In this document: piece after piece, positions 17,601-64,000 of the stretch | How positions within the stretch are numbered: position 1 is the stretch's first letter | How the letters are laid out: every line of letters begins with the position of its first letter | From: an uncultured delta proteobacterium | Lineage (GTDB): Bacteria; Desulfobacterota; Binatia; DP-6 | Direction of reading: 5' to 3' | DNA: 64,000 nucleotides | Assembly: GCA_963815115.1 (NCBI GenBank) | Contig: CAWFFN010000012.1 | Location: forward strand, 543,260 to 607,259 | Program-made: the position numbers and the translations under genes | The notes under the pieces: model-generated | Database searches by the model: none | Seen by the model: only the letters and a program-made list of their open reading frames with translations | What the model was told of the DNA's origin: nothing

Positions 17601-18941
17601 CTACGCGGCCTTCCCACCCTGCAGGCGCGCGGCCATGCGGCGCGCCGCGCGCGCCATCTCGCCGATCTCCGCCGGCCGGACGAGCAGCGTCTCCAGGACG
17701 GAGTGCCCCGAGTCGCGCACGAAGGCGACGAGCAGCACGAGCGCGGCGGTGCCGTAGGACAGGCCGTTGGCGAGCGCGGCGCCGGAGATGCCGTAGCGCG
17801 GGATGAGGAAGATGTTCAACGTCACGTTGAGCGTGAGGGCGAGGCAAGCGGCCAGGATGTTGATCTCCTGCTTGCCCCGGCTGGTGAAGTTCCGGGTGAG
17901 CAGCTGGTAGAGCGCCATCATGAGCAGGCCGGGCAGGAGGATGAGCAGCGGCTTGATGGCGCCGTCGTAGCGGTGACCGTAGAGGATGGGGATCAGGAGG
18001 GGGCCGCCGACGGCGAATCCCAGGACGCCGAGGGCGAGGATGAAGAGCGTGGAGCGGGTGACGCGCGTGGTGGCGGCGTGGGCGTCGCGATCGGCGGAGC
18101 CGGCCAGGCGCGGGAACATCACGGTGCCGGTCGCCTCCGGAATCTTGAGGAGCAGGCTGCCGAAGTTGACCGCGATCGCGTAGAGGCCGACCTGGGCGGG
18201 GGGCAGGAAGAAGGCGCAGATGTACTGGTCGATGCGCAGGTGGAGCGTCGCCGCCAGCGTCTGCACGTAGGACTTGCTGCCGAACGACAGCATCCCGCGG
18301 GCGAGCGGCCGGTTCCAGTGCAGGTGCAGCGGCGCTTCACGGTGCACCCGCCAGGTCATCCACAGCGTCATGAAGACCTGGATCACGACCTGCACGATGA
18401 CCGCGCCGACGAGCCCCATGTGGAGCAGCACCAGCGTGATCAGGAGGCCGACCAGGCTGAGCACGTTCGGCACGATCTGGCGGACGTTGTATTCGCGGAA
18501 ACGCTCCTGCGCCTGCGCGACGCCCAGCAGATAGAACTGGAGCGTGACGAACGGGATCAGCGCCAGCGAGGGCGGGATGAGCGACGGGGGCGTGTCCTTC
18601 AGGAACTTCGCGATCAGCCAGTCGCGGCCGAGGTAGCACACCAGCGCGGCAACGGTGCCGCTGACGAAGGCGAACCAGATCGAGTTCGATGCGACGTCCG
18701 ACGCGGACGCCCCGCGCCGCCGCATGTAGTACACGCTTGCCTGCGGGATGCCGAGCTTGACGAAGTTCGACAGCATGATCGGCAGCAGCACGAGGAGCTG
18801 GAAGCGGCCGCGATCGGCCGGCCCGAGCCAGCGCGCCGTGATGATGCCGTTCACGATGCCGATGGCCATCATGGCCACCTGACCGCCGAGGACCTGGAGT
18901 GAGTCTGCGGCGAAGTGCCGGCGGGCCTTGTGCTCAGCCAT
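17601..18941 (-). CDS. polysaccharide biosynthesis flippase (Wzx/MOP-superfamily)
   Basis: 446 aa from the ATG at 18941, about 12 TM helices. N-terminal FAADSLQVLGGQVAMMAIGIVNGIITARWLGPADRGRF is typical of the oligosaccharide flippase family. Confidence 0.7.
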   Translation of the reverse strand: MAEHKARRHFAADSLQVLGGQVAMMAIGIVNGIITARWLGPADRGRFQLLVLLPIMLSNFVKLGIPQASVYYMRRRGASASDVASNSIWFAFVSGTVAALVCYLGRDWLIAKFLKDTPPSLIPPSLALIPFVTLQFYLLGVAQAQERFREYNVRQIVPNVLSLVGLLITLVLLHMGLVGAVIVQVVIQVFMTLWMTWRVHREAPLHLHWNRPLARGMLSFGSKSYVQTLAATLHLRIDQYICAFFLPPAQVGLYAIAVNFGSLLLKIPEATGTVMFPRLAGSADRDAHAATTRVTRSTLFILALGVLGFAVGGPLLIPILYGHRYDGAIKPLLILLPGLLMMALYQLLTRNFTSRGKQEINILAACLALTLNVTLNIFLIPRYGISGAALANGLSYGTAALVLLVAFVRDSGHSVLETLLVRPAEIGEMARAARRMAARLQGGKAA

Positions 18942-20814
18942 GCGAGCTCTCCGCGGCGCCAGGCGGGAGTGCGTAGAGGGCGGACCCGCCGGCACGCACC
19001 ACGGGAGCGCCTGCCCGGTCGAGGAACGCCCGCCACAGCCCGGTGACCTGGGCCTCGTAGGGATCGCCGGCCGCCTTCAGGTCGTTCTCATCCACGGCGA
19101 CGTGCGTCGCGCCGAGCCGGCGGGCTGCGTCGCCGAGAGCATCGACCGTGTTCACGTGCCGGTAGTCGACGAGACCCTGCTCGAGGTAGCTCATCAGCAC
19201 GAAGGGCCGCTCGATGAAGTAGGGGTGGGGGATCTTCTCGAACACGAGCACGCGTCCGGTCGCGGGGATGGCCTGGTTGGCCTGGTGCCAGAAGACATAG
19301 CGGTCCGAGTAGCGGGAAAGGAAGACCTCGGGGGCGAGGCGCCCGAAGGCGACGCGCACCTGGTCCGGCCACATGGGGCGGAGCATGCGGCTCACGAGGA
19401 GCAGGTTGCCGCCGACGGTGACCGCCACCACCAGACAGAACAGGCGCCGCCCGCACAGCGCCCGCGCCGCCGGCGTCGCGGCCGCGATCAGGAGCGCGAG
19501 CCCGGGAAGCACGTAGCGCGGGTGCGCCCACGCCCCGACTGCGATGATCGCGACGTAGCCGGCTCCGATCGCGGCCACCGCCAGCGCGGCGCCCCGTCGC
19601 TCCCGGAGCAGGACCAGCGCCGGGAGGAAGGCCAGGCTCCACGGGCTCGTGTCCTGTCCCTGTCGCTTGCCCTTCTCGAACGACTCCGGATGCATGGTGA
19701 GATCCCACGGGAAGCGCGCCACCTCGGTGCCCCGGTAGGGCTTGCCGCCGCGCTGCGAGGCCTCCGTGGTGCGGTACTGGTCGTAGTACAGGTCGAGATA
19801 CGCGGCCGCCTCGGTACTCCAGTTGCGCCCCGCGAACACCCTCTGGCCGAAGGGGTAGAGAGGATTTCCGGTCTCGACCAGGTTGCGTACGTACCAGGGC
19901 GAGAGCAGCACGAGCGCGAGCACGCCGAAGCTCAGCGCGGCGCCGCCGGCGCGTCCGAGCGCGAGGCGGCGGCGGGCGAGGACGGCGAGGACGCCGATGC
20001 CCACCAGCGTCGGCACGAGCAGCGCCATGATCTTGGAGCCGCCCGCGAGACCGGCCATGATGCCCGCGCGTCGCAGGTCGCCCGCCCGCTCGCTGCTTGC
20101 CCAGTCGAGCAACGCCGAGACGGCGAGCGCGGCGTAGAGCACCACGCTCGTGTCGGTTCCTGCGCGGGTCATCTGCGACCAGCACATCCCGGTGGTGAAG
20201 AACACGGCGCCGGCGACGGCTCCCAGCCGATCACCGAGATGGCGGCGAGTGAGCGTCGCCAGGGCGAGCGCAGCCATCACGCCGGCGACGGCGTTCAGCA
20301 GCCGCGCCAGGACGTCGCCGCGCAGCGCGAAGGCGATCGTGAAGAGAAAGTTCTCGAGCCACTGCTGCTGTCCCCAGAAGGTCCAGGGTGTGGGCACGAG
20401 GCCGCCGGCGAGCGCGTAGAGCCGCGGGTAGACGAGATGGTACTTCTCCTGGTCGCCGCCCACCGGCGGCGCGAACCACGTCGGCGCCTCGATGAGCAGC
20501 AGCAGGGCACAAGCGGCCACGAGAACCCACGTCATGAGCCCGCGCGGCGCGCGCACCGCGCGCAGGGCAGCGATGAGAGGCGAGCCGCCCGCGACGAGCG
20601 CGATCGCGCCCGCGATCGCGAGGGGCAGGGGGCGGAGCACTCCGGCGGCGGCGAGCCCGAGCCCGACCAAGCTGGCCAGCCCGAGGCCGGTGGCGAGGCC
20701 CGCCAGCAGATGCTCGTGGGGCTGGTTCGGCAGCGCGCTCGCGGCGCGCAGCGCGAGCAACCCGGCCGCGGCGCTGGCTGCGAGCACCGCGAGCAGCAGG
20801 AGCAGATCGATCAC
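18934..20814 (-). CDS. GT39/PMT-ArnT-like membrane glycosyltransferase with a C-terminal soluble domain
   Basis: Multi-TM N-terminal half with PMT/ArnT-like loop motifs (ALAGGLVPTPWTFWGQQQW; TGNPLYPFG). Overlaps the flippase start by 8 nt. The start is uncertain; a GTG at 20814 was chosen. The long upstream extension is low-complexity. Confidence 0.55.
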   Translation of the reverse strand: MIDLLLLLAVLAASAAAGLLALRAASALPNQPHEHLLAGLATGLGLASLVGLGLAAAGVLRPLPLAIAGAIALVAGGSPLIAALRAVRAPRGLMTWVLVAACALLLLIEAPTWFAPPVGGDQEKYHLVYPRLYALAGGLVPTPWTFWGQQQWLENFLFTIAFALRGDVLARLLNAVAGVMAALALATLTRRHLGDRLGAVAGAVFFTTGMCWSQMTRAGTDTSVVLYAALAVSALLDWASSERAGDLRRAGIMAGLAGGSKIMALLVPTLVGIGVLAVLARRRLALGRAGGAALSFGVLALVLLSPWYVRNLVETGNPLYPFGQRVFAGRNWSTEAAAYLDLYYDQYRTTEASQRGGKPYRGTEVARFPWDLTMHPESFEKGKRQGQDTSPWSLAFLPALVLLRERRGAALAVAAIGAGYVAIIAVGAWAHPRYVLPGLALLIAAATPAARALCGRRLFCLVVAVTVGGNLLLVSRMLRPMWPDQVRVAFGRLAPEVFLSRYSDRYVFWHQANQAIPATGRVLVFEKIPHPYFIERPFVLMSYLEQGLVDYRHVNTVDALGDAARRLGATHVAVDENDLKAAGDPYEAQVTGLWRAFLDRAGAPVVRAGGSALYALPPGAAESSHG

Positions 20815-21019
20815 GACGACCCCCGGAGGTAGCCGAGCCAGTAGATCGCGTAGATCGCCGCGGCCCAGACGGCGAGCACCAGCCGGAGGATCACGGCGGC
20901 GCTCCGGCGAGGGGCTCCTGGGGGCACATGGGCGCGGGAGAATAGCGGGAAGCCTCCCGGATGACGAGAGCAACGAAGCCCGCTTACGTTGTGGCACCTG
21001 CGGGGGTCCAGCGACGCTG

Positions 21020-21049
21020 TTCCCAATCCCGACGGTGCCCGCGTATACT
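21020..21049 (+). promoter_or_regulatory. candidate promoter TTCCCA-N18-TATACT for the mntA-hepT operon (leaderless start)
   Basis: An AT-rich TATACT box sits 6 nt before the GTG at 21056 in a 70% GC background. Confidence 0.3.
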
Positions 21050-21055
21050 GCGCCG

Positions 21056-21463
21056 GTGACCGCCATTGACGACATCCGCGGCGTACTGGATCAGCGCGAC
21101 GATGTCCGCCTCGCGTACGTCTTCGGTTCCGTCGCCCGCGGGCACGCCCGGCCCCGCAGTGACGTCGACGTGGCGGTGCTCTTCGAGGGGGAGGCCACGC
21201 CGGGGGTGCTGGACCATTTCACCGAGGACCTCGAAGACGCTGCGGGCCGACGGGTCGATCTCATCGATCTCGCGACGGCTCCTCCCCTTCTGGCGCATCA
21301 GGTCGTGTCCACGGGCACCTGCATCGTGTGTCGCAACCCGAGGGAGCGTGCGTCCTTCGAGACCAGGACCGTCATCCGCTATCTCGACACTGCGCATCTC
21401 CGAAAGCTCCAGCACAGGTATCTCGCCAAACGCGTACAGGCGCGTCATGACGATCGAGCCTGA
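21056..21463 (+). CDS. mntA: MntA-type nucleotidyltransferase antitoxin (type VII TA)
   Basis: GTG start. AYVFGSVARGHARPRSDVDVAVLF is the GSxxRGxxxxxSDxD minimal nucleotidyltransferase motif. 135 aa. Confidence 0.75.
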   Translation: MTAIDDIRGVLDQRDDVRLAYVFGSVARGHARPRSDVDVAVLFEGEATPGVLDHFTEDLEDAAGRRVDLIDLATAPPLLAHQVVSTGTCIVCRNPRERASFETRTVIRYLDTAHLRKLQHRYLAKRVQARHDDRA

Positions 21464-23208: not shown

Positions 23209-23668
23209 CACCGGAACATCACCGGGGGCTGAGGATGGCGCTTGTCCGGTCCCGGCCCTGCCGGTCCCCGCCCGGCGCAACCGTGCCCCACGGACTGCGC
23301 TGTCCTACAGCGCGGCCCCGAAGCGGCCGGAGGCGGTCGAGGCGGTGCAGGTCTTGCCGAGGCGCCCCGTCACGTGCTGCCGCAGGTCGCTTGCGCGGGG
23401 AAGATAGAGCTTTCAAGGGCCGATTCGGCCCTCGCGCCTTCTACCAGCCCCCGTCGCTCTGTAACGACGTGTGGGGTGTCCCGTGTTCCTCGGAGCGCTC
23501 CGCCGAGACGACACCCAAGGGACGCCCTAGTGTCGCGTCGAGGACAAGTCCGCTACGAAATGGGCTACGGAACGGTTCATCGCCGCGCGATAGCTTGCGG
23601 GTGCCTCCGCCGCACACCCGGGAGGGGTCTCGCGATCGCCGGGCCGAGTGTCCGTGGCCTGGGCGGTG

Positions 23669-23710
23669 ATGTTCCCTTCCGTGTCACATGCATGTTCCCT
23701 GCGCTGTCAC
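23669..23710 (+). promoter_or_regulatory. tandem ATGTTCCC-N5-TGTCAC motif (x2, 23-nt register) upstream of the haloperoxidase-like gene
   Basis: gATGTTCCCttccgTGTCACatgcATGTTCCCtgcgcTGTCAC, 25 nt before the ATG at 23735. Confidence 0.45.
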
Positions 23711-23734
23711 GGTTCCATGGCGAAGGGAGAAACC

Positions 23735-25780: not shown

Positions 25781-25990
25781 AGCTGCTCGGCGCTGGGCGC
25801 GACTGCCCTCGGTGACGTGCTACAGCGCGGCGACGGCGGCAACGACTATCGCGGAGGTGGGGTGCGGTGCTGCCGAGCTGTACACCGAGCGCCTGGTCAC
25901 CACTCAGGGTGACCGACCGATAGCGGCCGTGCTGTTCGGTTCGGCGACCCGACGACCGGTACTCCTCCTTCCTTCTGGGCCCGCGCGACG

Positions 25991-26032
25991 ATGTTCCCTG
26001 TCGCGTTCCATGCATGTTCCCTTGGTTGTCAC
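25991..26032 (+). promoter_or_regulatory. ATGTTCCC ... ATGCATGTTCCC-N5-TGTCAC motif upstream of the 26237 gene
   Basis: gATGTTCCCtgtcgcGTTCCatgcATGTTCCCttggtTGTCAC, same orientation and register as the 23669 copy. Confidence 0.45.
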
Positions 26033-26236
26033 ACCTCCATCTCGGGGCCGGCGGGCCCGTCCAGGATGCACCGACGGCACCCTCGTCCAGAAGTTCGCAT
26101 GCCCAATAGAGGCCGTCGGCCGGCTGTTACGGGAGATCCCCCCAAAAGGAAGGTGCCACATGAATCGGACGCTTTGCAGCCGCCATCCTGCTTCGCTCAG
26201 AATATCCGCATATCCGCCCGCCGGATTTCGGCGGCC

Positions 26237-27069
26237 ATGGTGCCCGGCTCTCTCCGCCGCCTCGCCTGGCTCGTTCCCCTCTGCGCCCTGATCGGCTCCG
26301 CTGGAGCGGCGGGCGCAGGCACCCCCGCGCAGACGTGTGCCGCCGCGAAGCTGAAGGCGGCGGGCACGGAAATCGGGGGCGAGATGGGCTGCTACGGGAA
26401 GGCGAAGCAGGCGGGCGTTGCCGTCGATGGGGGCTGTCTCTCGAGGCAACGGATGAAGGCGGACAGGCGGATCAACTCGCTTGACGGCGCCTGCTCCGGC
26501 ACGGCGGCGGCCATCGACGCGGCCGTCGATAATTGCGTGGCCGCGTTCCTCAGCGACGACCCCGGCAACGGGGTGTGCCCGGCGGCGAGCGCGCAGAAGA
26601 TCGGCAAGGGCGGGAAGGCGGAACTCGCGTGTCAGGCGAAGGAAGTCTTGAGGCCGGGCATGTTCGCGGCGTGTGATGAGAAAGCCGACGGCAAGACGGG
26701 CGCGGGCCTAGAGAACGCGGGCGGCTGCGTGAATCCGACGGCCGTCCTCACGGACATCGACAACTGCAACACCGCCATTGACGCCATCATCGAGCAGACG
26801 ACGACCACCACCACCGAGCGACGACCACCAGCGAGCAGACGACCACCACCGAGCAGACGACCACCACCACCATCCCGTCCCCCTGCACTAGTAGTTCCGG
26901 TGGTAGTCCCTGCGATGCTTCTTGCCCTGGCTCTGTTTGCGCCCCGGAGTCGCCGCCTCCCACGGGGCATGGGCATCGCTGTCCATCGCCCCCCCAGCAC
27001 CTTAGCCCCGGGGATGCCTGCGTAGATGCAGACATCTGCGATTATGTTGAGTGCCAGCTCGGACGGTGA
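26237..27069 (+). CDS. secreted Cys-rich protein with an (EQTTTT)4 linker; frameshifted inside the linker repeat (likely pseudogene or assembly indel)
   Basis: Signal peptide MVPGSLRRLAWLVPLCALIGSAGAAGA, then a K/A-rich paired-Cys helical domain. At about 26819, gagcGacgacc replaces the expected gagcAGacgacc. After the shift the frame reads QTTTSEQTTTTEQTTTTTIPSPCTSSSGGSPCDASCPGSVCAP...CVDADICDYVECQLGR* with a stop at 27067-27069. Confidence 0.55.
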
Positions 27070-28282
27070 CTGTGGCTCGGGCAAGGTCTGCTTGAGGCCC
27101 TTTCCCGTCCCCTTCGGCAGCTGCAATGGTCCAGTTACAACGTGCTGCTCCTCATGCGCATCCTATTCTTGCTTGATTTCCCAGGCGCCCGCGTGCGGCG
27201 GCACGTGCCCGAGCGGACAGGTCTGCGCGGTGACTCCGGTGACTCATGCGTCCTGGCGTCCGACCAACACGTGGACTTCCTCACCACGTGGGGCAGCCCG
27301 GGCAGCGTGTGACGGACAGTTCAGCGGGCAGTTCTGCGGCAGCCCATGGCGTCGCCGCGGATGCGAGCGGGCAGGTCTTCGTGGCAGACTCCGGGAACAT
27401 CCGCATCCAGAAGTGCACTGCATCGTGCCCGTTCGTCACCAAGTGGGGCAGCTGCGGGCAGCGGGGACGGGCAGTTCAACCACCCGGTGGGGGTCGCCGT
27501 GGATGGGAGCGGGAACGTCTTCGTCGCCGACAATTCGGCAACCACCGCATCCAGAAGTTCGACAACACCGGGACGTTCGTGACCACGTGGGGGAGCGCGG
27601 GCAGCGGGGACGGGCAGTTCATTAACCCGGTGGGGGTCGCCGTGGATGGGAGCGGGAACGTCTTCGTCGCCGACTCGCGCAACAACCGCATCCAGAAGTT
27701 CACGAACACCGGCACCTTCCTCACCACGTGGGGCAGCCTGGGCAGCGGGGACGGGCAGTTCCATACCCCGCAGCGGGGTTGCCGTGGATGGGAGCGGGAA
27801 CGTCTTCGTCGCCGACGTCGCCAACAACCGCATCCAGAAGTTCACGAACACCGGCACGTTCTTGACCAAGTGGGGCAGAATGGGCAGCGGGGACGGGCAG
27901 TTCAATGAGCCCCATTGGCCTCGCCGTGGATGGGAACGGGAACGTCTTCGTCGCCGACACGCAACAACCGCATCCAGAAGTTCACGAACACCGGCACGTT
28001 CTTGACCAAGTGGGGCAGCGCGGGCAGCGGGGACGGGCAGTTCGACCAGTCCCGTCGACGTCGCCGTGGATGGGAGCGGGAACGTCTTCGTCGCCGACTC
28101 CGCCAACAACCGCATCCAGGAGTTCGACGAACACCGGTACCTTCCTCGCCACGCGAGGCTGCCCGGGCAGCGGGGAGGGGCAGTTCAATTTCCCGCACGG
28201 CGTCGCCGTCGGATGCTCCAGCGGAAATGTGTTCGTCGCCGACGAGTTCAACAACCGCATCCAGAAGTTCGCGTGTCCATAG
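27026..28282 (+). pseudogene. NHL-repeat (six-bladed beta-propeller) gene with seven tandem 141-144 nt repeats, about one indel per repeat. Probably the continuation of the 26237 gene.
   Basis: The Cys-rich lead-in (DCGSGKVCLRPFPVPFGSCNGPVTTCC...CGGTCPSGQVCAV) follows the previous stop in another frame. The repeats encode TKWGSxGSGDGQFNxPxGVAVDGSGNVFVADSxNNRIQKFTNTGTFLT but are scattered over six overlapping ORFs in three frames. The last repeat ends ...NNRIQKFACP*. Confidence 0.55.
27281..28282 (+). repeat. 7 tandem DNA repeats (about 141-144 nt) encoding NHL blades
   Basis: Blocks such as ggcagcggggacgggcagttc and gtcgccgtggatgggagcgggaacgtcttcgtcgccgac recur at approximately 27433, 27577, 27721, 27862, 28001 and 28144. 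Confidence 0.75.
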
Positions 28283-55895: not shown

Positions 55896-57827
55896 TCACC
55901 CGCCGAGCAACTGCCGCATCTGCCGGACGCCCGCATCGGTCGGAAACAGCCGCTCGGCGGCGGCCTGCGCCGATCGTGCGTCCTGCTCGCGGCCCGCCGC
56001 GCGCAGGAAGGTCACCAGGCCCACCCGCACGGCCGGATTCCCGGGGAGCAGGGTGACGAGGACCTCGAACTGGTCCGCGGCCTCGGCATACCGTCCCGCT
56101 CCGCGGAGCAGCGTCGCGTAGTTCATCCGCGCCAGGGCGTTGCGCGGAGCGAGCCGGATGGTCTCGAGATACTCGACCTCCGCCTCGGCCTGATGCCCCT
56201 GGCGCAGGAGGGCGTTGGCAAGGTTCAGGTGCAGGTCCGGCATCCGGGGATCGATGGCGAGCCCGCGGCGGAACACGGCCTCGGCCGCGGCCTCGTCGCC
56301 GTGCTCGCTGAAGGCACCGCCCAGATTGACGTAGGCGCTCACCAGATCGGGCTGGCGGTCGAGGGAGCGTTGGTATGCGTCGATCGCCTCCGCATAGCGT
56401 TTCGCCCGGACGAGAACGTTGCCGAGATTGTACAGGGTCATCGGCTCGTCGGGGGCGAGCCGGAGCGAGGTCTCGATCTCCGCGACCGCCTCGTCGTTCC
56501 GGTTCTCCTCGCTGAGAAGGAGCGCCAGCTCGCGGTGGCTGCGCGCGCTGCGGGGCGCGTCCGCCACCATGGTCCGAAAGAAGATCGGCGCGTCGCGCCA
56601 CACCGTGTTGCGCTCGATGGTACGCGCGCCGTACAGCGCGACGACGAGCGCGGCGAGTGCGGCCGTCAGCCTCGTTCCGCGTCCGATGGTCGTGATCCCG
56701 AACGCCAGCAGCAGACAGAATCCGGCGGACGGGAGATAGAGCAGCCGCTCCGCCATGATCGTGCCGATCAGGACGACGGCGTTGGACACGATCGAGAACG
56801 TGAGCGCGGAGAAGGCGATCGCGAAGCACACGTGGCGCTCGCGATACCAGCCCCACGCGGCGAGGCCGCCAGCGACCAGGAGCACGGCGACGCCCGCGCC
56901 GACGCGCGGGTCGGCGAGCGAGGTCGCGAGCTCGAATTGGGGGAACGAGTAGTCTGCGGACAGACGGACCGGCCAGATCAGGAGCCGGGCGTACGCTGCG
57001 ACGATCGCGAGGGCGCTGTACAGCCGCGATCCCGGCGACGCCGTTCCGAGCGGGTTGTCGAGCTGCAGCGGGAGCGGGGCGACACCATGCATGACGGCGG
57101 TGCGGATCAGGAGCGCGGCGATCGCGCCCAGCGCGAGCGCTCCGTATCCCCGGACGTCGAGCCGGCGCCGGTAGATCAGATCGGCCGCGATCGCGACCGC
57201 GACGATCGTGATCGCATTCTCCTTCGCGAGCACGCCGGCGAACAGCGTCAGCGCGGCCGCGGCATGCGCCGGCACGCTGCGCCGGGTGAGAACGATCCAC
57301 CACGCCAGGAGGGCGAGGAGGGCCGCCAGCACCTCGGCGCGGCCGACGACGCTCGCCACCGCCTCGGTGTGCACGGGATGGGCGGCGAACAGGAACGCCG
57401 CCAGGAGCGCGAGCGTCGCATCGCGGGTGACTCGAGCCAGCAGCAGCGCCAGCACGACGCACACGGCCGCGTGCAGGACGACGTTGACCGCGTGGTAGCC
57501 GAGGGGCGCCGCGCCGTGGATCGCGTAGTTCGCCGCGAAGCTTGCCGTCGTCACCGGGCGGTAGACGTCCATGTAGCCGTTCGGCGTGAACCATGATCCG
57601 GTCGTCACGATGCGCGCCAGGTCGACCTCCGCCACTGCCGGGTTCCGGACGATCGCGTTCACGTCGTCGTAGATCAGCCCCCCGCGCAGCGTGTTCAGGT
57701 AGCAGCCCAGCGCCACCGCCACGAGCAAAGCCAGGAGCAGGCCCGGGGGATGCCCGGCCGCCCGCACGCTCCCGGAAGGCGGCGGCGCACCGGTCCGGAC
57801 GTGCCGCCCGCCGCGGACGGCCGTCAT
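55896..57827 (-). CDS. TMTC/DUF1736-like polytopic membrane protein with C-terminal TPR repeats (PMT-like glycosyltransferase fold)
   Basis: N-terminal ...YLNTLRGGLIYDDVNAIVRNP is characteristic. About 10 TM helices. C-terminal TPR repeats (YNLGNVLVRAKRYAEAIDAYQRSLDRQPDLVSAYVNLG...). Confidence 0.75.
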   Translation of the reverse strand: MTAVRGGRHVRTGAPPPSGSVRAAGHPPGLLLALLVAVALGCYLNTLRGGLIYDDVNAIVRNPAVAEVDLARIVTTGSWFTPNGYMDVYRPVTTASFAANYAIHGAAPLGYHAVNVVLHAAVCVVLALLLARVTRDATLALLAAFLFAAHPVHTEAVASVVGRAEVLAALLALLAWWIVLTRRSVPAHAAAALTLFAGVLAKENAITIVAVAIAADLIYRRRLDVRGYGALALGAIAALLIRTAVMHGVAPLPLQLDNPLGTASPGSRLYSALAIVAAYARLLIWPVRLSADYSFPQFELATSLADPRVGAGVAVLLVAGGLAAWGWYRERHVCFAIAFSALTFSIVSNAVVLIGTIMAERLLYLPSAGFCLLLAFGITTIGRGTRLTAALAALVVALYGARTIERNTVWRDAPIFFRTMVADAPRSARSHRELALLLSEENRNDEAVAEIETSLRLAPDEPMTLYNLGNVLVRAKRYAEAIDAYQRSLDRQPDLVSAYVNLGGAFSEHGDEAAAEAVFRRGLAIDPRMPDLHLNLANALLRQGHQAEAEVEYLETIRLAPRNALARMNYATLLRGAGRYAEAADQFEVLVTLLPGNPAVRVGLVTFLRAAGREQDARSAQAAAERLFPTDAGVRQMRQLLGG

Positions 57828-58305
57828 CGTGCCCGGGCGCCCCGGGCCGGGATGCCGGCGTCACCGTGAGGGACTCGTGGAACCCCAGGCGCGCGTCTCG
57901 TCATGGTTCTCCACCCGAGCCGCGGCCATCCCGGGCGCGACGCGACCGTGGCTCGGTTCGGATGCGAAACGCTGGCAGCGATCGCTTCGTCTTGTCAACG
58001 CCCTCAGCCGCGCAGTCGGTCCTCGATCGCCTCGCGCACGAAGTCGTCGAGGGTCTTGGCGCCGAGCGCGGCCTGCAGGCGGATCGATCGTAGGCGGGAG
58101 ATGGGGAGGCGGATGTCGAGGGAGGAGAAGTCAGGGAGGAAGCCGGTCGTGCCTGCGTGGTCGTTCGTCGCGCGCGGTCGTGGCTTCTTGGTTCTCACCG
58201 GGACCTTCTTGCTGGGCATATGGTATGGTGCTCGATACCCGTGGCGCACGAGCCGCGTCTTGTCCGTGGGGGCCATTCTGTTGTCTAAGTGGGCCAAGTG
58301 CCGGG

Positions 58306-58858
58306 ATGGCAGAGCGGACCGTAGGCGTCCTGCAGCTGCTCGACCTGCTGAAGGCCTTGCGTTCGGTGGGGGCCGATTCCGGCCGCTTGTGCCGCGCGGC
58401 CGGTCTCGCGCCGGGTACGTTGCGGGATCTCGGCGCGAGGGTGCGGGGCTCCGACCCCATCGGTGTTTGCCAACCCGCTGGCGGCCGAACGGATCGAGGA
58501 TCTCGCCATCACCCTCGAGAAGCGGGCCGCTCGGACAAGTGAACGGGCCAGGGTGACGGACGTGGTGCGCACGATGGCGATCTCGGGCGTTCGCGCGCAT
58601 CGCCTGCGGGTCGCGCGCCAGCTCGGCATGAGCGGGCGAACGCTCCAGCGCGCCCTCGCCCGGGAAGGCGTGACCTTCACGGACGTCCGGGCCGAGGTGC
58701 TCTGGGACGCAGTGCCTTCGCTGCTCGCGAACCCGTCGTGCAAGGTGCAGGCGGTCGCGATGCAAGCCGGCTTCGCCGATGCGGCGGGCTTCTCGAAGGC
58801 GTTCCGACGGCGGATGGGCTGCTCGCCCAGCGACTACCGGAAGCGGCTCGCCAGGTAG
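58306..58858 (+). pseudogene. AraC-family regulator. The Arabinose_bd-type N-domain is reduced to about 50 aa and frameshifted relative to an intact C-terminal HTH domain.
   Basis: N-terminal frame (ATG 58306): MAERTVGVLQLLDLLKALRSVGADSGRLCRAAGLAPGTLRDLGARVRGSDPIGV, the start of an AraC-binding-like domain. C-terminal frame (GTG 58463): ...HRLRVARQLGMSGRTLQRALAREGVTFTDVRAEVLWDAV...QAGFADAAGFSKAFRRRMGCSPSDYRK, the AraC HTH. The 131-aa HTH-only ORF could alternatively be a stand-alone protein. Confidence 0.5.
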
Positions 58859-58931
58859 CGAGGCGCGCTGCGGGGCGCATCTTGACCTCGATCGGGGGAG
58901 GGGTGAAGGTCCAGTCGAGGAGGTGATCGAC

Positions 58932-59555
58932 ATGGCGACCTGGGCGGCCAAGGGGCAGTACATGGAGGCGTGTAGCTGCGATTTTCTCTGTCCGTGCGTT
59001 CCAAAGAACGCGACCACGCCGGCGACCCACGATTTCTGCAAGGTCGCCCTGACGTTCGCGATCGATTCCGGACGGTACGGCGACGTCCCGCTCGACGGGG
59101 TGCGTTTCGTCTTCTTCGCGCAGTCGAAGGCCATCATGACCCACGGCGACTGGATCGGCGGGGTGGTCATCGATTCCGCCGCCAGCGACGCGCAGGCCGA
59201 GGCCGTCGGGGCCCTCGCCAGCGGCGCGGCCGGCGGTCCTCTCGGGCTGTTCGCACCCTTGCTCGGCGATTTTCGAGGCGTGCAGCGGCATCCCATCCAC
59301 GTCACGCAGGACGGCCACAACGTGAGCGTCAGGATCGACGGCCTGCTCGATCAAAGCGTCGTCGGGGTCGAGAGCGTGTCGGTGCCGGGCGCGTGCGTCG
59401 CCATCGACAACACCTTCCACCCGGTGAACAAGCGGCTGAACCTCGCCACCGCGCTGCGCAACGTGATCAGCGCCTTCGGGATCGAGTGGAAGGGAGAGCC
59501 GGGAAGGACCAACGGACACTTCGCGCCCTTCGACTGGAGGGGCGAGACTGCGTGA
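58932..59555 (+). CDS. DUF1326-family protein
   Basis: GAGGAGG as RBS. N-terminal MATWAAKGQYMEACSCDFLCPCV (the CxC...CPC motif of DUF1326). 207 aa. Confidence 0.75.
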   Translation: MATWAAKGQYMEACSCDFLCPCVPKNATTPATHDFCKVALTFAIDSGRYGDVPLDGVRFVFFAQSKAIMTHGDWIGGVVIDSAASDAQAEAVGALASGAAGGPLGLFAPLLGDFRGVQRHPIHVTQDGHNVSVRIDGLLDQSVVGVESVSVPGACVAIDNTFHPVNKRLNLATALRNVISAFGIEWKGEPGRTNGHFAPFDWRGETA

Positions 59556-60310
59556 ATGTCCGGTTCTCGCGGCTCCTGACCTTCGCCGTTCTCGTCGCGA
59601 TCGGCGGGATCGCATGGGCGTTCCTGGTACGCAGCGAGGAGGCCATGACGACCATGGCGGGCGACGGGCCGATCGTCCGGCTGATGTGGCTGATGATGCG
59701 GCCGGCGGAGTTCCTGCCATACTTCTTCGCCGCGGCGCTCATGTGGGTGATCATGATGATCGCCATGATGGTGCCTGCCGTGGTGCCGATGGTCATGGTG
59801 ATGCGCGGCGTCGACGGCGGCCCGCATCGCGAGCGCGACACGCTGCTGTTCGCCGCGGGGTATCTCATCGGATGGAGCGCGTTCGGCCTGGTGGCGGCAT
59901 TCCTCCAGCTCTGGCTGCACGCCCGCGGCGTGCTCGGCGGCGATCGGCTGGCGGTCGGCGCGCTCGGCGCCGGACTGCTCCTGCTCGCGGCGGGCATGTA
60001 CCAGCTCACTCCGTGGAAGGCGGCCTGCCTGCGTCACTGCCGCAGCCCGGCGAGCTTCTTCCTCGAGCACTGGTCGCCCGGTGGCCGCGGCGCTCTCGCC
60101 ATGGGGCTGCGCCACGGCCTCTACTGCGTCGGCTGCTGCTGGGTGCTGATGCTGCTGATGTTCGTCGGCGGCACGATGAGCGTGCTCACGATGGCGGCGC
60201 TGTGCGCCTTCATCCTCGCCGAGCGCCTGCTGCCGGACGGGCCGTGGGTCTCGCGCATCCCCGGCACGGCGATGATCGTGTCGGGCGCGCTCTTGATTGC
60301 GTCGCGCTGA
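59552..60310 (+). CDS. DUF2182-family predicted metal-binding integral membrane protein
   Basis: GTGA start/stop overlap with the DUF1326 gene. About 6 TM helices and the conserved Cys/His pattern (CLRHCRSP, HGLYCVGCCW). It is the usual genomic partner of DUF1326. Confidence 0.7.
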   Translation: MNVRFSRLLTFAVLVAIGGIAWAFLVRSEEAMTTMAGDGPIVRLMWLMMRPAEFLPYFFAAALMWVIMMIAMMVPAVVPMVMVMRGVDGGPHRERDTLLFAAGYLIGWSAFGLVAAFLQLWLHARGVLGGDRLAVGALGAGLLLLAAGMYQLTPWKAACLRHCRSPASFFLEHWSPGGRGALAMGLRHGLYCVGCCWVLMLLMFVGGTMSVLTMAALCAFILAERLLPDGPWVSRIPGTAMIVSGALLIASR

Positions 60311-61320
60311 GGCGACGGACCCCGGCGCCGGCCAGGAGAGCCGGCGCCGGGGGTTGGGGTCGCTAGAACCGCAGCGTGTGGCTACGGCACGGCGAAGAAC
60401 TGCGCGTTCCCGGGCAGGCTGAGCGAGCCCGGGCCCGGCAGATCGGCGAGCCCGTCGAGGGCCAGGCTGCCGGTCTGCGGGATGCAGAAGTTGCTCACGA
60501 GCACGCCGGCGTGCGGCGCGCCGTCGGAGAGATCACCCGCCGGCGATCCGTTCTGCGTGATCGCCTGCGTCGCCGCCTGCCCGAAGGCGCCCGCGTGCGG
60601 CTGCGCCGGGCAGAAGAGCCCGTCGGCCGCCGTGGTCGTCACCGGGGCCGAGGTCAGCGGGTTGAGGCTGATGGGCAGCGTGGCCACGAAGGTCCCAGGA
60701 TCCGGTAGACAATCGACCGACGTCTGCGTGCTGTTGCCGGTCGTGCAGGGCTGGCCGGCGCTGGGGCCGGAGTTGCAGAACCCGCCGTCGCAGATCGGGC
60801 AGATGGTGGGCTTGCCGAGCGTCAGGTAGACGAACGACGCCAGCTCGATGTCGACCGTCGACTCGCCCGTGGCGACGTTGAGCGTCCCGCTGGCATCCTG
60901 CGCGAAGGCGTTCACCACGCAGCTCGGCGGGAAGCCGTTCACCAGGACCGGCGGGCCGAAGTAGCAGGTCGGATCGGTCTGGCAGCCGCCCGGCGCGAAG
61001 CATGCCGAGTCGTCGGTGCACTCGACCGCCGGGTTGTTGACGCAGTGCTTGACGGAGCCCTGCGGCCCCACCGAGCAGTCCGTCCGGCTCGTCCCCAGGC
61101 TGCCGGACAACGTCGTGCCGTCGGGGCTGTCGAGGACCGTGGTGGCGTTCTCCGGAATGATCGACGGGTTCACCGTCGCCGCGCCGCCACCGATGTAGAG
61201 GCAGCCCGCTCCGAGGTCGACGAGCTTCGTGCCGACGAGGTCGGAGTCGAGCTCACCCGAGAAGGGCGGATCGGCCGGCGTGCCGAACCCGTTCGCGCCG
61301 CAGTTGGCCGTGCCTGCGCT
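60308..61320. repeat. copy 1 of a >1 kb direct repeat (3' half of the secreted-protein gene plus terminator hairpin)
   Basis: 100% identical to 63061..64000 across the CDS. Only the 70 nt flank shows a few mismatches (offset 2679 nt). Confidence 0.85.
60320..60352. terminator. bidirectional terminator-like hairpin between convergent genes (13-bp perfect stem, 7-nt loop, no U-tract)
   Basis: CCCCGGCGCCGGC-caggaga-GCCGGCGCCGGGG. Confidence 0.5.
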
Positions 61321-62532
61321 CGTCGTGAACGACAGGTGCTGGCCGAGCGGCGGCGGGGCGGTCGTCGTCGTCGTGCTCGTCGTGGTGGTCGTGGTGCTGG
61401 TGGTGGGCACGCTCTGCTGGCGATTCAAGTCGATCGAGAACTGGTCGATGAGCTGCTCGAGCGGCGCGAGCTGCGTCGGCGTGCCGCACGCCTTCAAGGA
61501 CGAGTTGAACGACGCGCCGGCCTTCGTCACACACGCCGGGTCCGTCGCGGTGCCGCTCTTGGCGCCCGACGAGAAGCACTTGGCGACGGCCTGGAGCTTC
61601 TTGCCGATCGACGTGAGCTTCTTGCCGAAGCAGACGTCCGGTCCCGGCGACCCGCCGGTCACGATCTGGATCGCCTGCCCGATGACGGCGTTGACCGACG
61701 CCCCGGTGGCGTCGGCGTCCGGGCTCACCAGGCAGTCGCCCTTCTTCTGCGCATTGGTGAAGCCCTTGGTCAGCGTGTCGGTCGCCTTCTGGAGACAGGC
61801 GTCGTCCACCGGCAGGCCCTTCTGGAGGGCCTTGGCGTAGCAGCTCGCGACCGCCTTCGCCTGCTTCCCGGCGGCGTCGTCGAGGCCCTGCGCGCACTTG
61901 CTCGCCGGCTGGGCCACCGACACGAAGGCGACGTTGTCCATGCTGAAGATCTCGACCCCGAAGAAGAGATCGCCCGGCACCCCGCAGCTGTGGCTGCTGG
62001 TGACGACCACCTGCTCCGCGCCCGGCGGTGGCAGTGTGAGGGAGAGGGTCTCGCCCGCCATGTCGGCGGTCTGGGTGTCGGAGTCCAGGAGGGTGCCGTC
62101 ATGCGCGAAGCCCTGGATCGTCACGATGCTGGCTCCCATGCAGTCGATCCCGAACGTCCCCGTGTCGAACTGGAAATACTGGATCGGCGGATAGAAGGTG
62201 AGGAACTCGGGCGATTGGGCGAGTCCGCCGGTGACCACCGGGAACGCGCTCAGGAAGTAGATGTTGTTCGGCAGGGAGATGTACGGCACTTCCTCGGGGT
62301 TGAACGCTGGGTTGAAGAGACCGCCGCTGTTCTGTCCGAACCCGGCGAACTGGACTCCCCGGTTCACGTACTGGTCGGTGACGACGAGGAAAGGGATCTG
62401 CTGGTTCGGTCCGAGATCGATGTCGTCGAAGTTGACCAGCGTCGCGGTCACCGGCGGAGGCATGAGCTGCGCCCCCGCGCTACCGGCGAGCGCCGTGAGC
62501 AGCAGGGCGCTCGCGATCCGTGAGATTCTCAT
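60382..62532 (-). CDS. large secreted Cys-rich protein: K/A-rich paired-Cys helical domain, poly-Thr linker, Cys-rich C-terminal domain
   Basis: 716 aa. Signal peptide MRISRIASALLLTALAGSAGAQ. ...KCAQGLDDAAGKQAKAVASCYAKALQKG..., linker TTSTTTTTTSTTTTT, and a C-terminal half with about 30 cysteines. Confidence 0.7.
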   Translation of the reverse strand: MRISRIASALLLTALAGSAGAQLMPPPVTATLVNFDDIDLGPNQQIPFLVVTDQYVNRGVQFAGFGQNSGGLFNPAFNPEEVPYISLPNNIYFLSAFPVVTGGLAQSPEFLTFYPPIQYFQFDTGTFGIDCMGASIVTIQGFAHDGTLLDSDTQTADMAGETLSLTLPPPGAEQVVVTSSHSCGVPGDLFFGVEIFSMDNVAFVSVAQPASKCAQGLDDAAGKQAKAVASCYAKALQKGLPVDDACLQKATDTLTKGFTNAQKKGDCLVSPDADATGASVNAVIGQAIQIVTGGSPGPDVCFGKKLTSIGKKLQAVAKCFSSGAKSGTATDPACVTKAGASFNSSLKACGTPTQLAPLEQLIDQFSIDLNRQQSVPTTSTTTTTTSTTTTTAPPPLGQHLSFTTSAGTANCGANGFGTPADPPFSGELDSDLVGTKLVDLGAGCLYIGGGAATVNPSIIPENATTVLDSPDGTTLSGSLGTSRTDCSVGPQGSVKHCVNNPAVECTDDSACFAPGGCQTDPTCYFGPPVLVNGFPPSCVVNAFAQDASGTLNVATGESTVDIELASFVYLTLGKPTICPICDGGFCNSGPSAGQPCTTGNSTQTSVDCLPDPGTFVATLPISLNPLTSAPVTTTAADGLFCPAQPHAGAFGQAATQAITQNGSPAGDLSDGAPHAGVLVSNFCIPQTGSLALDGLADLPGPGSLSLPGNAQFFAVP

Positions 62533-62986
62533 ACGAAGCCCCCCTGACGTTGTGCAGCGTTGGACGAATGCTTCGTCGCCGGCGCGTGAGGCGCCGGCGC
62601 GATCCCCGGGGCCTCGGGTCAGGCAGCTCCCATGGGTTCACCCTCCTGAAGGCGCCTGACCTGGATACATTCGCTGCGTGTCCCGGAGGGCTCAGCATGC
62701 GCCGCGGGCACCTTCGTCACACGAGACGGCGGGCTGGCTGCGCTCGAGCGAAGTGACAGCTTCGCCCGGTCTCCGGCTGCTTCGGGGTGAAGCCGAGCGC
62801 TCGAGATCGTCCGGGATGCACCGACGAACATGCCGTCGACATCCCGTCGAGCCCCGGCGGAGCAGGTGGATACTGACACGTCAGTTTCCGGGGTGGCGGG
62901 TACTCCCCCTCGGAGACGGATGTCAAGCATCCTACCGCCTGGACCGAGCCACCCGGCGCGTGAACGTCGCCCATTCTCCAACGAAG

Positions 62987-64000
62987 TGAGGCGACGGACC
63001 CCGGCGCCGGCCAGGAGAGCCGGCGCCGGGGGTTGGGTCGCCCAGAACCGCAGCGTGCTGCTACGGCACGGCGAAGAACTGCGCGTTCCCGGGCAGGCTG
63101 AGCGAGCCCGGGCCCGGCAGATCGGCGAGCCCGTCGAGGGCCAGGCTGCCGGTCTGCGGGATGCAGAAGTTGCTCACGAGCACGCCGGCGTGCGGCGCGC
63201 CGTCGGAGAGATCACCCGCCGGCGATCCGTTCTGCGTGATCGCCTGCGTCGCCGCCTGCCCGAAGGCGCCCGCGTGCGGCTGCGCCGGGCAGAAGAGCCC
63301 GTCGGCCGCCGTGGTCGTCACCGGGGCCGAGGTCAGCGGGTTGAGGCTGATGGGCAGCGTGGCCACGAAGGTCCCAGGATCCGGTAGACAATCGACCGAC
63401 GTCTGCGTGCTGTTGCCGGTCGTGCAGGGCTGGCCGGCGCTGGGGCCGGAGTTGCAGAACCCGCCGTCGCAGATCGGGCAGATGGTGGGCTTGCCGAGCG
63501 TCAGGTAGACGAACGACGCCAGCTCGATGTCGACCGTCGACTCGCCCGTGGCGACGTTGAGCGTCCCGCTGGCATCCTGCGCGAAGGCGTTCACCACGCA
63601 GCTCGGCGGGAAGCCGTTCACCAGGACCGGCGGGCCGAAGTAGCAGGTCGGATCGGTCTGGCAGCCGCCCGGCGCGAAGCATGCCGAGTCGTCGGTGCAC
63701 TCGACCGCCGGGTTGTTGACGCAGTGCTTGACGGAGCCCTGCGGCCCCACCGAGCAGTCCGTCCGGCTCGTCCCCAGGCTGCCGGACAACGTCGTGCCGT
63801 CGGGGCTGTCGAGGACCGTGGTGGCGTTCTCCGGAATGATCGACGGGTTCACCGTCGCCGCGCCGCCACCGATGTAGAGGCAGCCCGCTCCGAGGTCGAC
63901 GAGCTTCGTGCCGACGAGGTCGGAGTCGAGCTCACCCGAGAAGGGCGGATCGGCCGGCGTGCCGAACCCGTTCGCGCCGCAGTTGGCCGTGCCTGCGCTC
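62987..64000. repeat. copy 2 of the direct repeat, running off the window end
   Basis: Includes a second hairpin at 62999..63031 identical to 60320..60352. Confidence 0.85.
63061..64000 (-). CDS. paralogous secreted Cys-rich protein; only the C-terminal part is in the window and the gene continues past 64000
   Basis: Translation is identical to the C-terminal 313 aa of the 60382..62532 protein. The reading frame stays open to the window edge. Confidence 0.7.
   Translation of the reverse strand, partial: SAGTANCGANGFGTPADPPFSGELDSDLVGTKLVDLGAGCLYIGGGAATVNPSIIPENATTVLDSPDGTTLSGSLGTSRTDCSVGPQGSVKHCVNNPAVECTDDSACFAPGGCQTDPTCYFGPPVLVNGFPPSCVVNAFAQDASGTLNVATGESTVDIELASFVYLTLGKPTICPICDGGFCNSGPSAGQPCTTGNSTQTSVDCLPDPGTFVATLPISLNPLTSAPVTTTAADGLFCPAQPHAGAFGQAATQAITQNGSPAGDLSDGAPHAGVLVSNFCIPQTGSLALDGLADLPGPGSLSLPGNAQFFAVP

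Follow-up and report, generated by a model that had tools for sequence, protein, structure and literature searches.

Two adjacent genes for secreted proteins in an uncultured bacterium share an identical 3′ part, probably through recent partial gene conversion

Near the end of a 64,000-nucleotide (nt) stretch of DNA from an uncultured bacterium of the Binatia lineage (contig CAWFFN010000012.1, positions 543,260 to 607,259; this whole stretch is hereafter the window, with a G+C content of 69.8%), a segment of more than 1 kb occurs twice in direct orientation. The two occurrences take in the 3′ parts of two neighboring genes, which we call A and B. The question that this locus raises is whether the identity means that a gene was duplicated very recently or that one of two older copies was partly overwritten by the other. 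A repeat search of the window yielded a two-copy direct repeat with a start-to-start spacing of 2679 nt, and the elements on which the argument depends are as follows.

60308–61321: first copy of the repeat, consisting of the 3′ flank and the last 313 codons of gene A
62987–64000: second copy of the repeat, consisting of the 3′ flank and the last 313 codons of gene B and cut by the window end; tblastn gave 100% identity over residues 405–716
60382–62532, minus strand: gene A, an open reading frame (ORF) of 716 amino acids (aa) with an exact database match, P0001
63061–64000, minus strand: gene B, represented in the window by its C-terminal 313 codons; its complete product is probably P0088 (716 aa)
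60359–60380, with its partner at 63038–63059: diverged 22-nt patch between stop codon and hairpin, with 7 mismatches
60382–61968, minus strand: putative conversion tract in gene A, from codon 189 to the stop codon (∼1587 nt), verified at the DNA level over 60382–61321

A base-by-base comparison at the 2679-nt offset revealed that 62987–64000 is a copy of 60308–61321 apart from the 7 mismatches, which fall exactly at 60359–60362, 60364, 60379, and 60380 and nowhere else in 60308–61321. The coding portions (60382–61321 and 63061–64000) differ at 0 of 940 nt, as had been claimed in the original prediction, except that the first copy ends at 61321 and not at 61320. The similarity stops at 60308, with unrelated sequences to its left, and this edge is the TGA of the convergent upstream gene. 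Chance can be excluded as the source of the identity because, over these 940 nt, the window sequence departs at 70 and 56 sites from the two orthologous copies of the closest related genome (the ENA contig L001), which themselves differ from each other at 52 sites (94% identical); because of frameshift-type indels in L001, such base-level comparisons slightly overestimate divergence.

The window ends inside gene B, and the reach of the identity beyond that point was read at the protein level. The database source of P0001 is a 908,230-bp contig, and P0088 is encoded on the same contig and belongs to the same 90% cluster. We infer that P0088 is the full product of gene B because it is the sole other member of the cluster on that contig, because its C terminus matches the visible part of gene B, and because its B-type residues (such as TLGADCAGASIVT, PAPGAEQ, PGTLFFGV, and AQTPEF) are common to the positional B copy of L001. 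The gene A product and P0088 differ at 35 residues, all within 3–188, and at none of residues 189–716; across the N-terminal β-sandwich region, they are 82% identical. Because the last difference is at residue 188, the tract is taken to begin at codon 189. If P0088 is gene B, the identical coding tract is probably ∼1.59 kb rather than 0.94 kb and probably spans three of the four modules of the protein. The repeat as originally outlined is real inside the window, but the identity very probably continues for ∼650 nt further, and the homogenized part, which had been described as the C-terminal domain, would also include the helical middle domain and the linker.

A stretch of at least 940 nt without a single difference, together with the sharp left edge at 60308, could be read as the mark of a very recent duplication, either of the gene or of its 3′ 1.6 kb, and this was one of the two explanations first put forward. 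However, two other assemblies have this tandem pair on the same strand and in the same genomic position: L001, whose nt identity to the window is ∼92%, and L003, a JGI soil contig from a more distant relative whose gene A product is 81% identical. A PpoB2-type copper chaperone gene, a DUF1326 gene, and a TMTC/TPR gene are neighbors of the pair in all three. Because the tandem pair occupies the same locus in L001 and L003, the duplication predates the divergence of the window genome, L001, and L003. Further, 35 of 188 residues distinguish the N-terminal domains of the window pair, each of which clusters with a gene of another genome (see the trees below), and the 2679-nt period corresponds to a whole gene unit including its leader, as does the 2687-nt period of L001. 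We give a very recent duplication hardly any credence.

Constraint on the protein also fails to account for the identity. In comparisons of the window with L001, the synonymous divergence (dS) of the C-terminal domain was 0.20–0.25, and the ratio of nonsynonymous to synonymous divergence (dN/dS) was 0.1–0.3 in all parts; therefore, protein constraint cannot explain the complete lack of differences between A and B. The A/B tract is more alike than either copy is to its L001 ortholog, synonymous sites included. Overall identity between the L001 copies is 91%; per 100 nt, they are 75–93% identical in the N-terminal domain and 87–100% elsewhere, with some 100-nt windows being 100% identical.

Bootstrapped neighbor-joining trees of the window, L001, and L003 copies were built for three partitions of the gene (N-terminal domain, helical middle, and C-terminal domain), and they conflict. 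In the N-terminal tree, window A grouped with L001-A (72%) and window B with L003-A (86%), and the window copies were not sisters. In the middle and C-terminal trees, window A and B were sisters with 99.5% bootstrap support; in the middle partition, L001-A and L001-B were sisters too (77%). L003-A and L003-B stood far apart, and their affinities switched between partitions. Compared with the window genes, L003-A is 80–94% identical in the N-terminal and middle parts and 76% in the C-terminal part; the corresponding values for L003-B are 52–59% and 86%. Among family homologs, one set is 44–50% identical to gene A in the N-terminal domain and 81–89% in the C-terminal domain, and a second set is 76–82% and 68–79% identical, respectively. 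Inside the N-terminal domains, A-type and B-type residues occur in short patches that are swapped between genomes. Paralogs at four other loci shared identical runs of at most 35–149 nt, and the N-terminal domains were their least similar part (50–77% nt identity). Recombination between paralogs is recurrent in this family, and the tract in the window is an unusually long and fresh case of it.

Such recombination could also have taken the form of unequal crossing-over between the tandem copies, with expansion to three copies, or a chimeric contraction, and subsequent loss or re-duplication. Repeats of this kind (direct, in tandem, 2.7 kb long, and 80–95% identical) are good substrates for crossing-over, and three-copy loci of the family occur in L002 and L004. 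Yet at least two events would be required to regain two copies, the original flanks, and distinct N-terminal domains, and the fine mosaic that A-type and B-type residues form in the N-terminal domains across genomes better matches short conversion tracts, so that we regard this route as very unlikely. The three-member clusters themselves lie at 3519–10172 in L002 and at 1930–10611 in L004, and the leader described below is present on some of their copies only; in the L004 cluster, two family members are just 105 nt apart.

We therefore favor with good confidence a recent partial gene conversion between old tandem paralogs as the event that produced the identical tract. The conversion between tandem paralogs envisaged in the original prediction is borne out by the syntenic pair in L001 and L003, the N-terminal differences, and the tree conflict. 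An old tandem duplication would have given rise to a ∼2.68-kb unit, comprising promoter and leader, the 716-codon gene, and a 3′ hairpin, and thus to two adjacent same-strand paralogs for secreted three-domain proteins. Very recently, nonreciprocal homologous recombination (intrachromosomal gene conversion), presumably by RecA-dependent repair with the neighboring copy as template, would have overwritten one copy over ∼1.6 kb, starting near codon 189 and ending at the stop codon. Everything downstream of the N-terminal domain (helical bundle, Thr-rich linker, and C-terminal barrel) would thereby have been made identical, and the CBM-like N-terminal β-sandwich would have been kept distinct. The 5′ edge would lie near the junction of the N-terminal and helical domains, where the similarity of the paralogs drops and where heteroduplex extension and mismatch tolerance would end; the tract would stop there because the N-terminal domains are the most diverged part of the family, and selection to retain two distinct heads may play a part. 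The 3′ edge would lie just past the stop codon. The diverged 22-nt patch would mark this edge, and its 7 mismatches correspond to ∼4–5 events once indels are allowed. The hairpin beyond the patch is kept in both window copies and both L001 copies, and its identity therefore need not stem from the same event; conservation, not necessarily conversion, would be responsible.

Several points weigh against conversion as we have set it out. Paralogs in the other genomes examined have no identical run of >149 nt, and a tract of 940 nt or more is unusual for the family. The length that we assign to the tract depends on P0088, which we infer to be the product of copy B. Along the shared tract, a stretch that resembles L001-A is followed by one that resembles L001-B, so that either copy may have served as the donor. 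Finally, a graph assembler or a polisher could have merged two copies with a true difference of ∼1–2% into one consensus, inflating the identity to 100%.

This last point leads to the explanation by an assembly or polishing artifact, according to which two real copies with slightly different 3′ parts were represented by one consensus written twice, through bubble popping or mis-mapped reads. The window does come from a metagenome-assembled contig, and the absence of long identical runs from the other family genomes examined would fit such an artifact. Related contigs such as L001 show frameshift-type indels typical of error-prone long-read assemblies. In L001 (6911–12221), such indels occur in both gene copies, each of which is split into two called genes, and they suggest an assembly of that kind. 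Moreover, an independent Logan assembly of run ERR11523651 stops at 60143, short of the repeat. That same assembly nonetheless reproduces the flank base for base: a 4-kb contig, found via the DUF1326 neighbor, equals 56103–60143 of the window without one difference. The 22-nt patch stayed distinct between two identical stretches, and the N-terminal domains stayed distinct as well; therefore, the assembler resolved the copies where they differ. A true identity of ∼98% would still exceed both the 94% of the L001 tract and the similarity of the N-terminal domains, so that conversion would still be needed. An artifact of this type is, in our judgment, quite unlikely. An expansion artifact, with a single true copy, is also unlikely because the two-copy synteny is conserved and the N-terminal domains are distinct. 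The repeat marks a place where neither assemblies nor read mapping can be relied on.

Beyond the diverged patch, each gene is followed by a hairpin.

60320–60352, minus strand: GC-only hairpin 3′ of gene A, with a 14-bp stem and a 5-nt loop, between the convergent PpoB2 gene and gene A
62999–63031, minus strand: identical hairpin 3′ of gene B, with 0 mismatches

It had first been reported that the sequences past the stop codon, including a 13-bp hairpin, differ at a few positions. A few mismatches do lie past the stop codon, but the hairpin is identical in both copies and its stem is 14 bp long. The 91-nt hairpin region folds at −56.5 kcal/mol (z = −5.7 compared with shuffled sequence). Of the features that define an intrinsic (Rho-independent) terminator, a GC-rich hairpin after the stop codon is present and a U-tract is absent: GUCCGUCGCC comes next after the hairpin, and a terminator scan made no call there. 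The possibility that the hairpin is a dispersed repeat element was rejected, as it has just two occurrences in the window.

To describe what was homogenized and what was kept distinct, we turn to the protein. The gene A product carries a Sec-type signal peptide, more than 20 conserved Cys residues, and a linker of sequence TTSTTTTTTSTTTTT, in agreement with the earlier description of a secreted Cys-rich protein. No Pfam or NCBIfam match was obtained for it, none of 61 family members matched either, and a PDB sequence search returned nothing relevant. An AlphaFold2 model built with 61 homologs (predicted local distance difference test score, 86.5) gave the following architecture.

Residues 22–205: N-terminal β-sandwich, preceded by the signal peptide
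Residues 212–374: Cys-stapled helical bundle of six helices with conserved Cys pairs
Residues 377–395: Thr-rich linker, disordered
Residues 396–716 (60385–61347, minus strand): C-terminal β-barrel domain of 8 strands with Cys-rich loops
61918–62469, minus strand: region coding for the CBM-like N-terminal β-sandwich, which differs between the paralogs

A Foldseek search with the full model returned CBM4, CBM6, CBM51, CBM61, and BtuJ/DUF4465 structures (E values of 1e-4 to 3e-3, target template-modeling scores of 0.4–0.55, and probabilities of ∼1). These matches were assigned to the N-terminal domain because they were gone when the C-terminal domain was searched alone. The N-terminal domain may resemble these proteins in fold, and it departs from them in sequence, with 6–16% identity and no Pfam match. 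The best structural matches of the C-terminal domain were 8-stranded barrels, and among solved folds, those of the outer membrane come closest. It has the 8-stranded antiparallel fold of NspA, OmpW, and the N-terminal domain of OmpA/OprF; compared with these and with the soluble barrels YceI and PsbO, sequence identity is 5–8%, and there is no Pfam match. Unlike those barrels, it has 320 residues and long loops with conserved Cys, follows a Thr-rich linker, contains no Trp, and ends in FFAVP. At this C terminus (...GNAQFFAVP), the aromatic residues are near the end and not terminal. The faces of the strands, as read from the sequence, alternate between hydrophobic and polar, which is compatible with a membrane barrel or a soluble one. 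The β-domain of autotransporters (type V), which is 12-stranded, was considered and rejected, given that there was no Pfam match and that the best structural matches are 8-stranded.

The C-terminal domain (∼320 aa) is an unannotated module, with P0090–P0234 as examples. At E ≤ 1e-3, 760 cluster representatives (50% identity) carry it; it almost always forms the very end of proteins of 300–1400 aa with varied N-terminal parts, and it is sometimes repeated. Metagenome contigs from JGI and GenBank yielded 223 relatives, and a genome collection scanned with gene A yielded none. The few named family members are mostly from Candidatus Binatia; the cytochrome oxidase subunit I encoded in the window comes closest (73–74%) to those of Candidatus Binatia/Binataceae MAGs. 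Our best guess is that the gene pair encodes secreted or surface proteins in which a variable glycan- or ligand-binding head would sit on a common stalk and base.

The phenomenon of concerted evolution is already known, and the present locus is a new example of it in an uncharacterized family. The tufA/tufB genes of Salmonella are one instance among bacterial paralogs. Recurrent cases of gene conversion and concerted evolution of bacterial paralogs have been catalogued across prokaryotes (PMC6053082), and duplicated PE_PGRS pairs and other repeats of Mycobacterium tuberculosis serve as examples of conversion (PMC1762029, PMC12046097). As in known cases, the tract in the window is identical even at synonymous sites while orthologs differ, the trees of tract and flank conflict, and the duplication predates speciation. 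In contrast to known cases, the event is partial and respects domains, the copies are adjacent and not dispersed, and the family is uncharacterized and belongs to an uncultured lineage. In Helicobacter pylori, the surface/adhesin genes babA and babB form a pair with shared ends and different binding regions and exchange sequence by conversion. Likewise, the pair in the window combines a variable putative binding module with a homogenized remainder, and recombination between paralogs creates mosaics. Unlike babA/babB, however, the N-terminal domain bears no sign of diversifying selection (dN/dS, 0.2–0.3), and our case, in this comparison as in the preceding one, is known from sequence alone. 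Positive selection on the N-terminal domain was considered in its own right and found to be unsupported (dN/dS, 0.18–0.31). Overall, the locus offers a clean, well-controlled case, from an uncultured lineage, of gene conversion that respects domain boundaries, in which the identity of two copies records their history and not a fresh duplication.

The repeat unit also includes a conserved leader upstream of gene A, whose elements and further copies are as follows.

62533–62930, minus strand: noncoding leader of gene A (∼400 nt), part of the 2679-nt unit
62921–62926, minus strand: TTGACA, −35-like, at the 5′ end of the leader
62872–62885, minus strand: inverted repeat ACTGAC-GT-GTCAGT, ∼35 nt downstream of TTGACA
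62619–62647, minus strand: strong Shine-Dalgarno-like AGGAGGG and 4-codon mini-ORF, the mini-ORF (ATG GGA GCT GCC TGA) being at 62619–62633
L001, 6905–7324 and 9591–10014; L003, 135–557 and 2827–3248; L005, 1612–2036: leader copies
L004, 1670–1863 and 5827–6033; L021, 812–1022; L002, 3271–3452; L009, 568–730: leader copies

Mean column identity of the leader is 86% over five copies from the window, L001, and L003, although the N-terminal domains of the L003 paralogs are only ∼55% identical; the leader is more conserved than the coding sequence. Iterated nhmmer searches gave 11 instances, each located 50–250 nt upstream of a family gene, including those in the distant L002, L004, L009, and L021. 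Conserved within the leader are a hairpin, GGGCGAAG-CTGTCA-CTTCGCTC, with a CTGTCA loop and some compensatory changes, and a block, AGGCGCCTTC(A/G)GG(A/G)GGG, followed by ATG-N9-stop. The ATG-N9-stop arrangement is kept in 10 of the 11 leaders, whereas its codons vary (MGAA, MKAA, MRSP, MRIT, MRFG, and MRSV); one copy has TAA in place of TGA, and one has ATT in place of ATG. A GC-rich hairpin follows the mini-ORF, ∼90 nt ahead of the main start codon. In the diverse leader set, RNAalifold gave three short helices with weak covariation, and no structure is claimed. Rfam gave no match to the leader, its two chance-level matches (E values of 0.4 and 0.9) both lying outside it, and a promoter scan around the repeat gave nothing usable.

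Two other readings of the leader were rejected. A small-protein gene, in the form of a 120-aa ORF ending at the stop codon of the mini-ORF, is contradicted by substitutions that lack codon periodicity (24/30/33) and by the broken frame in other copies. Long-range pairing between AAGGUGCC and GGCGCCUU, inspected by eye, is contradicted by L002 and L009, which alter one side without compensation. The sequence pattern points to the leader as a candidate cis-regulatory element, which may be a new RNA or an operator region, and the inverted repeat may be an operator. A gene for an AraC-family regulator lies at 58463–58858, near the inverted repeat.

These parts can be joined into a single proposal, which we put forward as a doubtful one. 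The pair would encode surface proteins mounted on an undescribed C-terminal barrel that acts as an anchor or export module; recurrent conversion would keep the stalk and anchor identical while the CBM-like heads are kept different; and the structured 5′ leader with its 4-codon mini-ORF would act as a translational sensor or attenuator. To the same proposal belongs the equally tentative suggestion that, in Binatia-like soil bacteria, the barrel module forms the C terminus of protein clusters numbering in the hundreds. Taken separately, the C-terminal barrel domain, the domain-shuffling family of secreted proteins, and the mini-ORF leader are three unannotated items that recur in soil metagenomes. 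They are tractable leads for annotating Binatia-type genomes, and none of them answers a long-standing question.

Several other features of the window touch on the gene pair or lie apart from it.

55896–57827, minus strand: TMTC_DUF1736/TPR protein gene (protein O-mannosyltransferase-like), syntenic with the gene pair
18934–21075, minus strand: PMT_2-type glycosyltransferase gene, the second such gene in the window
25991–27025: ORF that weakly resembles the helical Cys domain encoded by gene A (E value of 7e-5; 28% over 111 aa)
27393–28125: five tandem units of ∼141 nt (60–87% identity), just downstream of the ORF at 25991–27025
23656–23718 and 25978–26040: 63-nt direct repeat with 76% identity, upstream of ORFs

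The Thr-rich linker of the duplicated proteins could be O-glycosylated. The 63-nt direct repeat contains the motifs GATGTTCCCT...ATGCATGTTCCCT...TGTCAC and may be a shared regulatory site.

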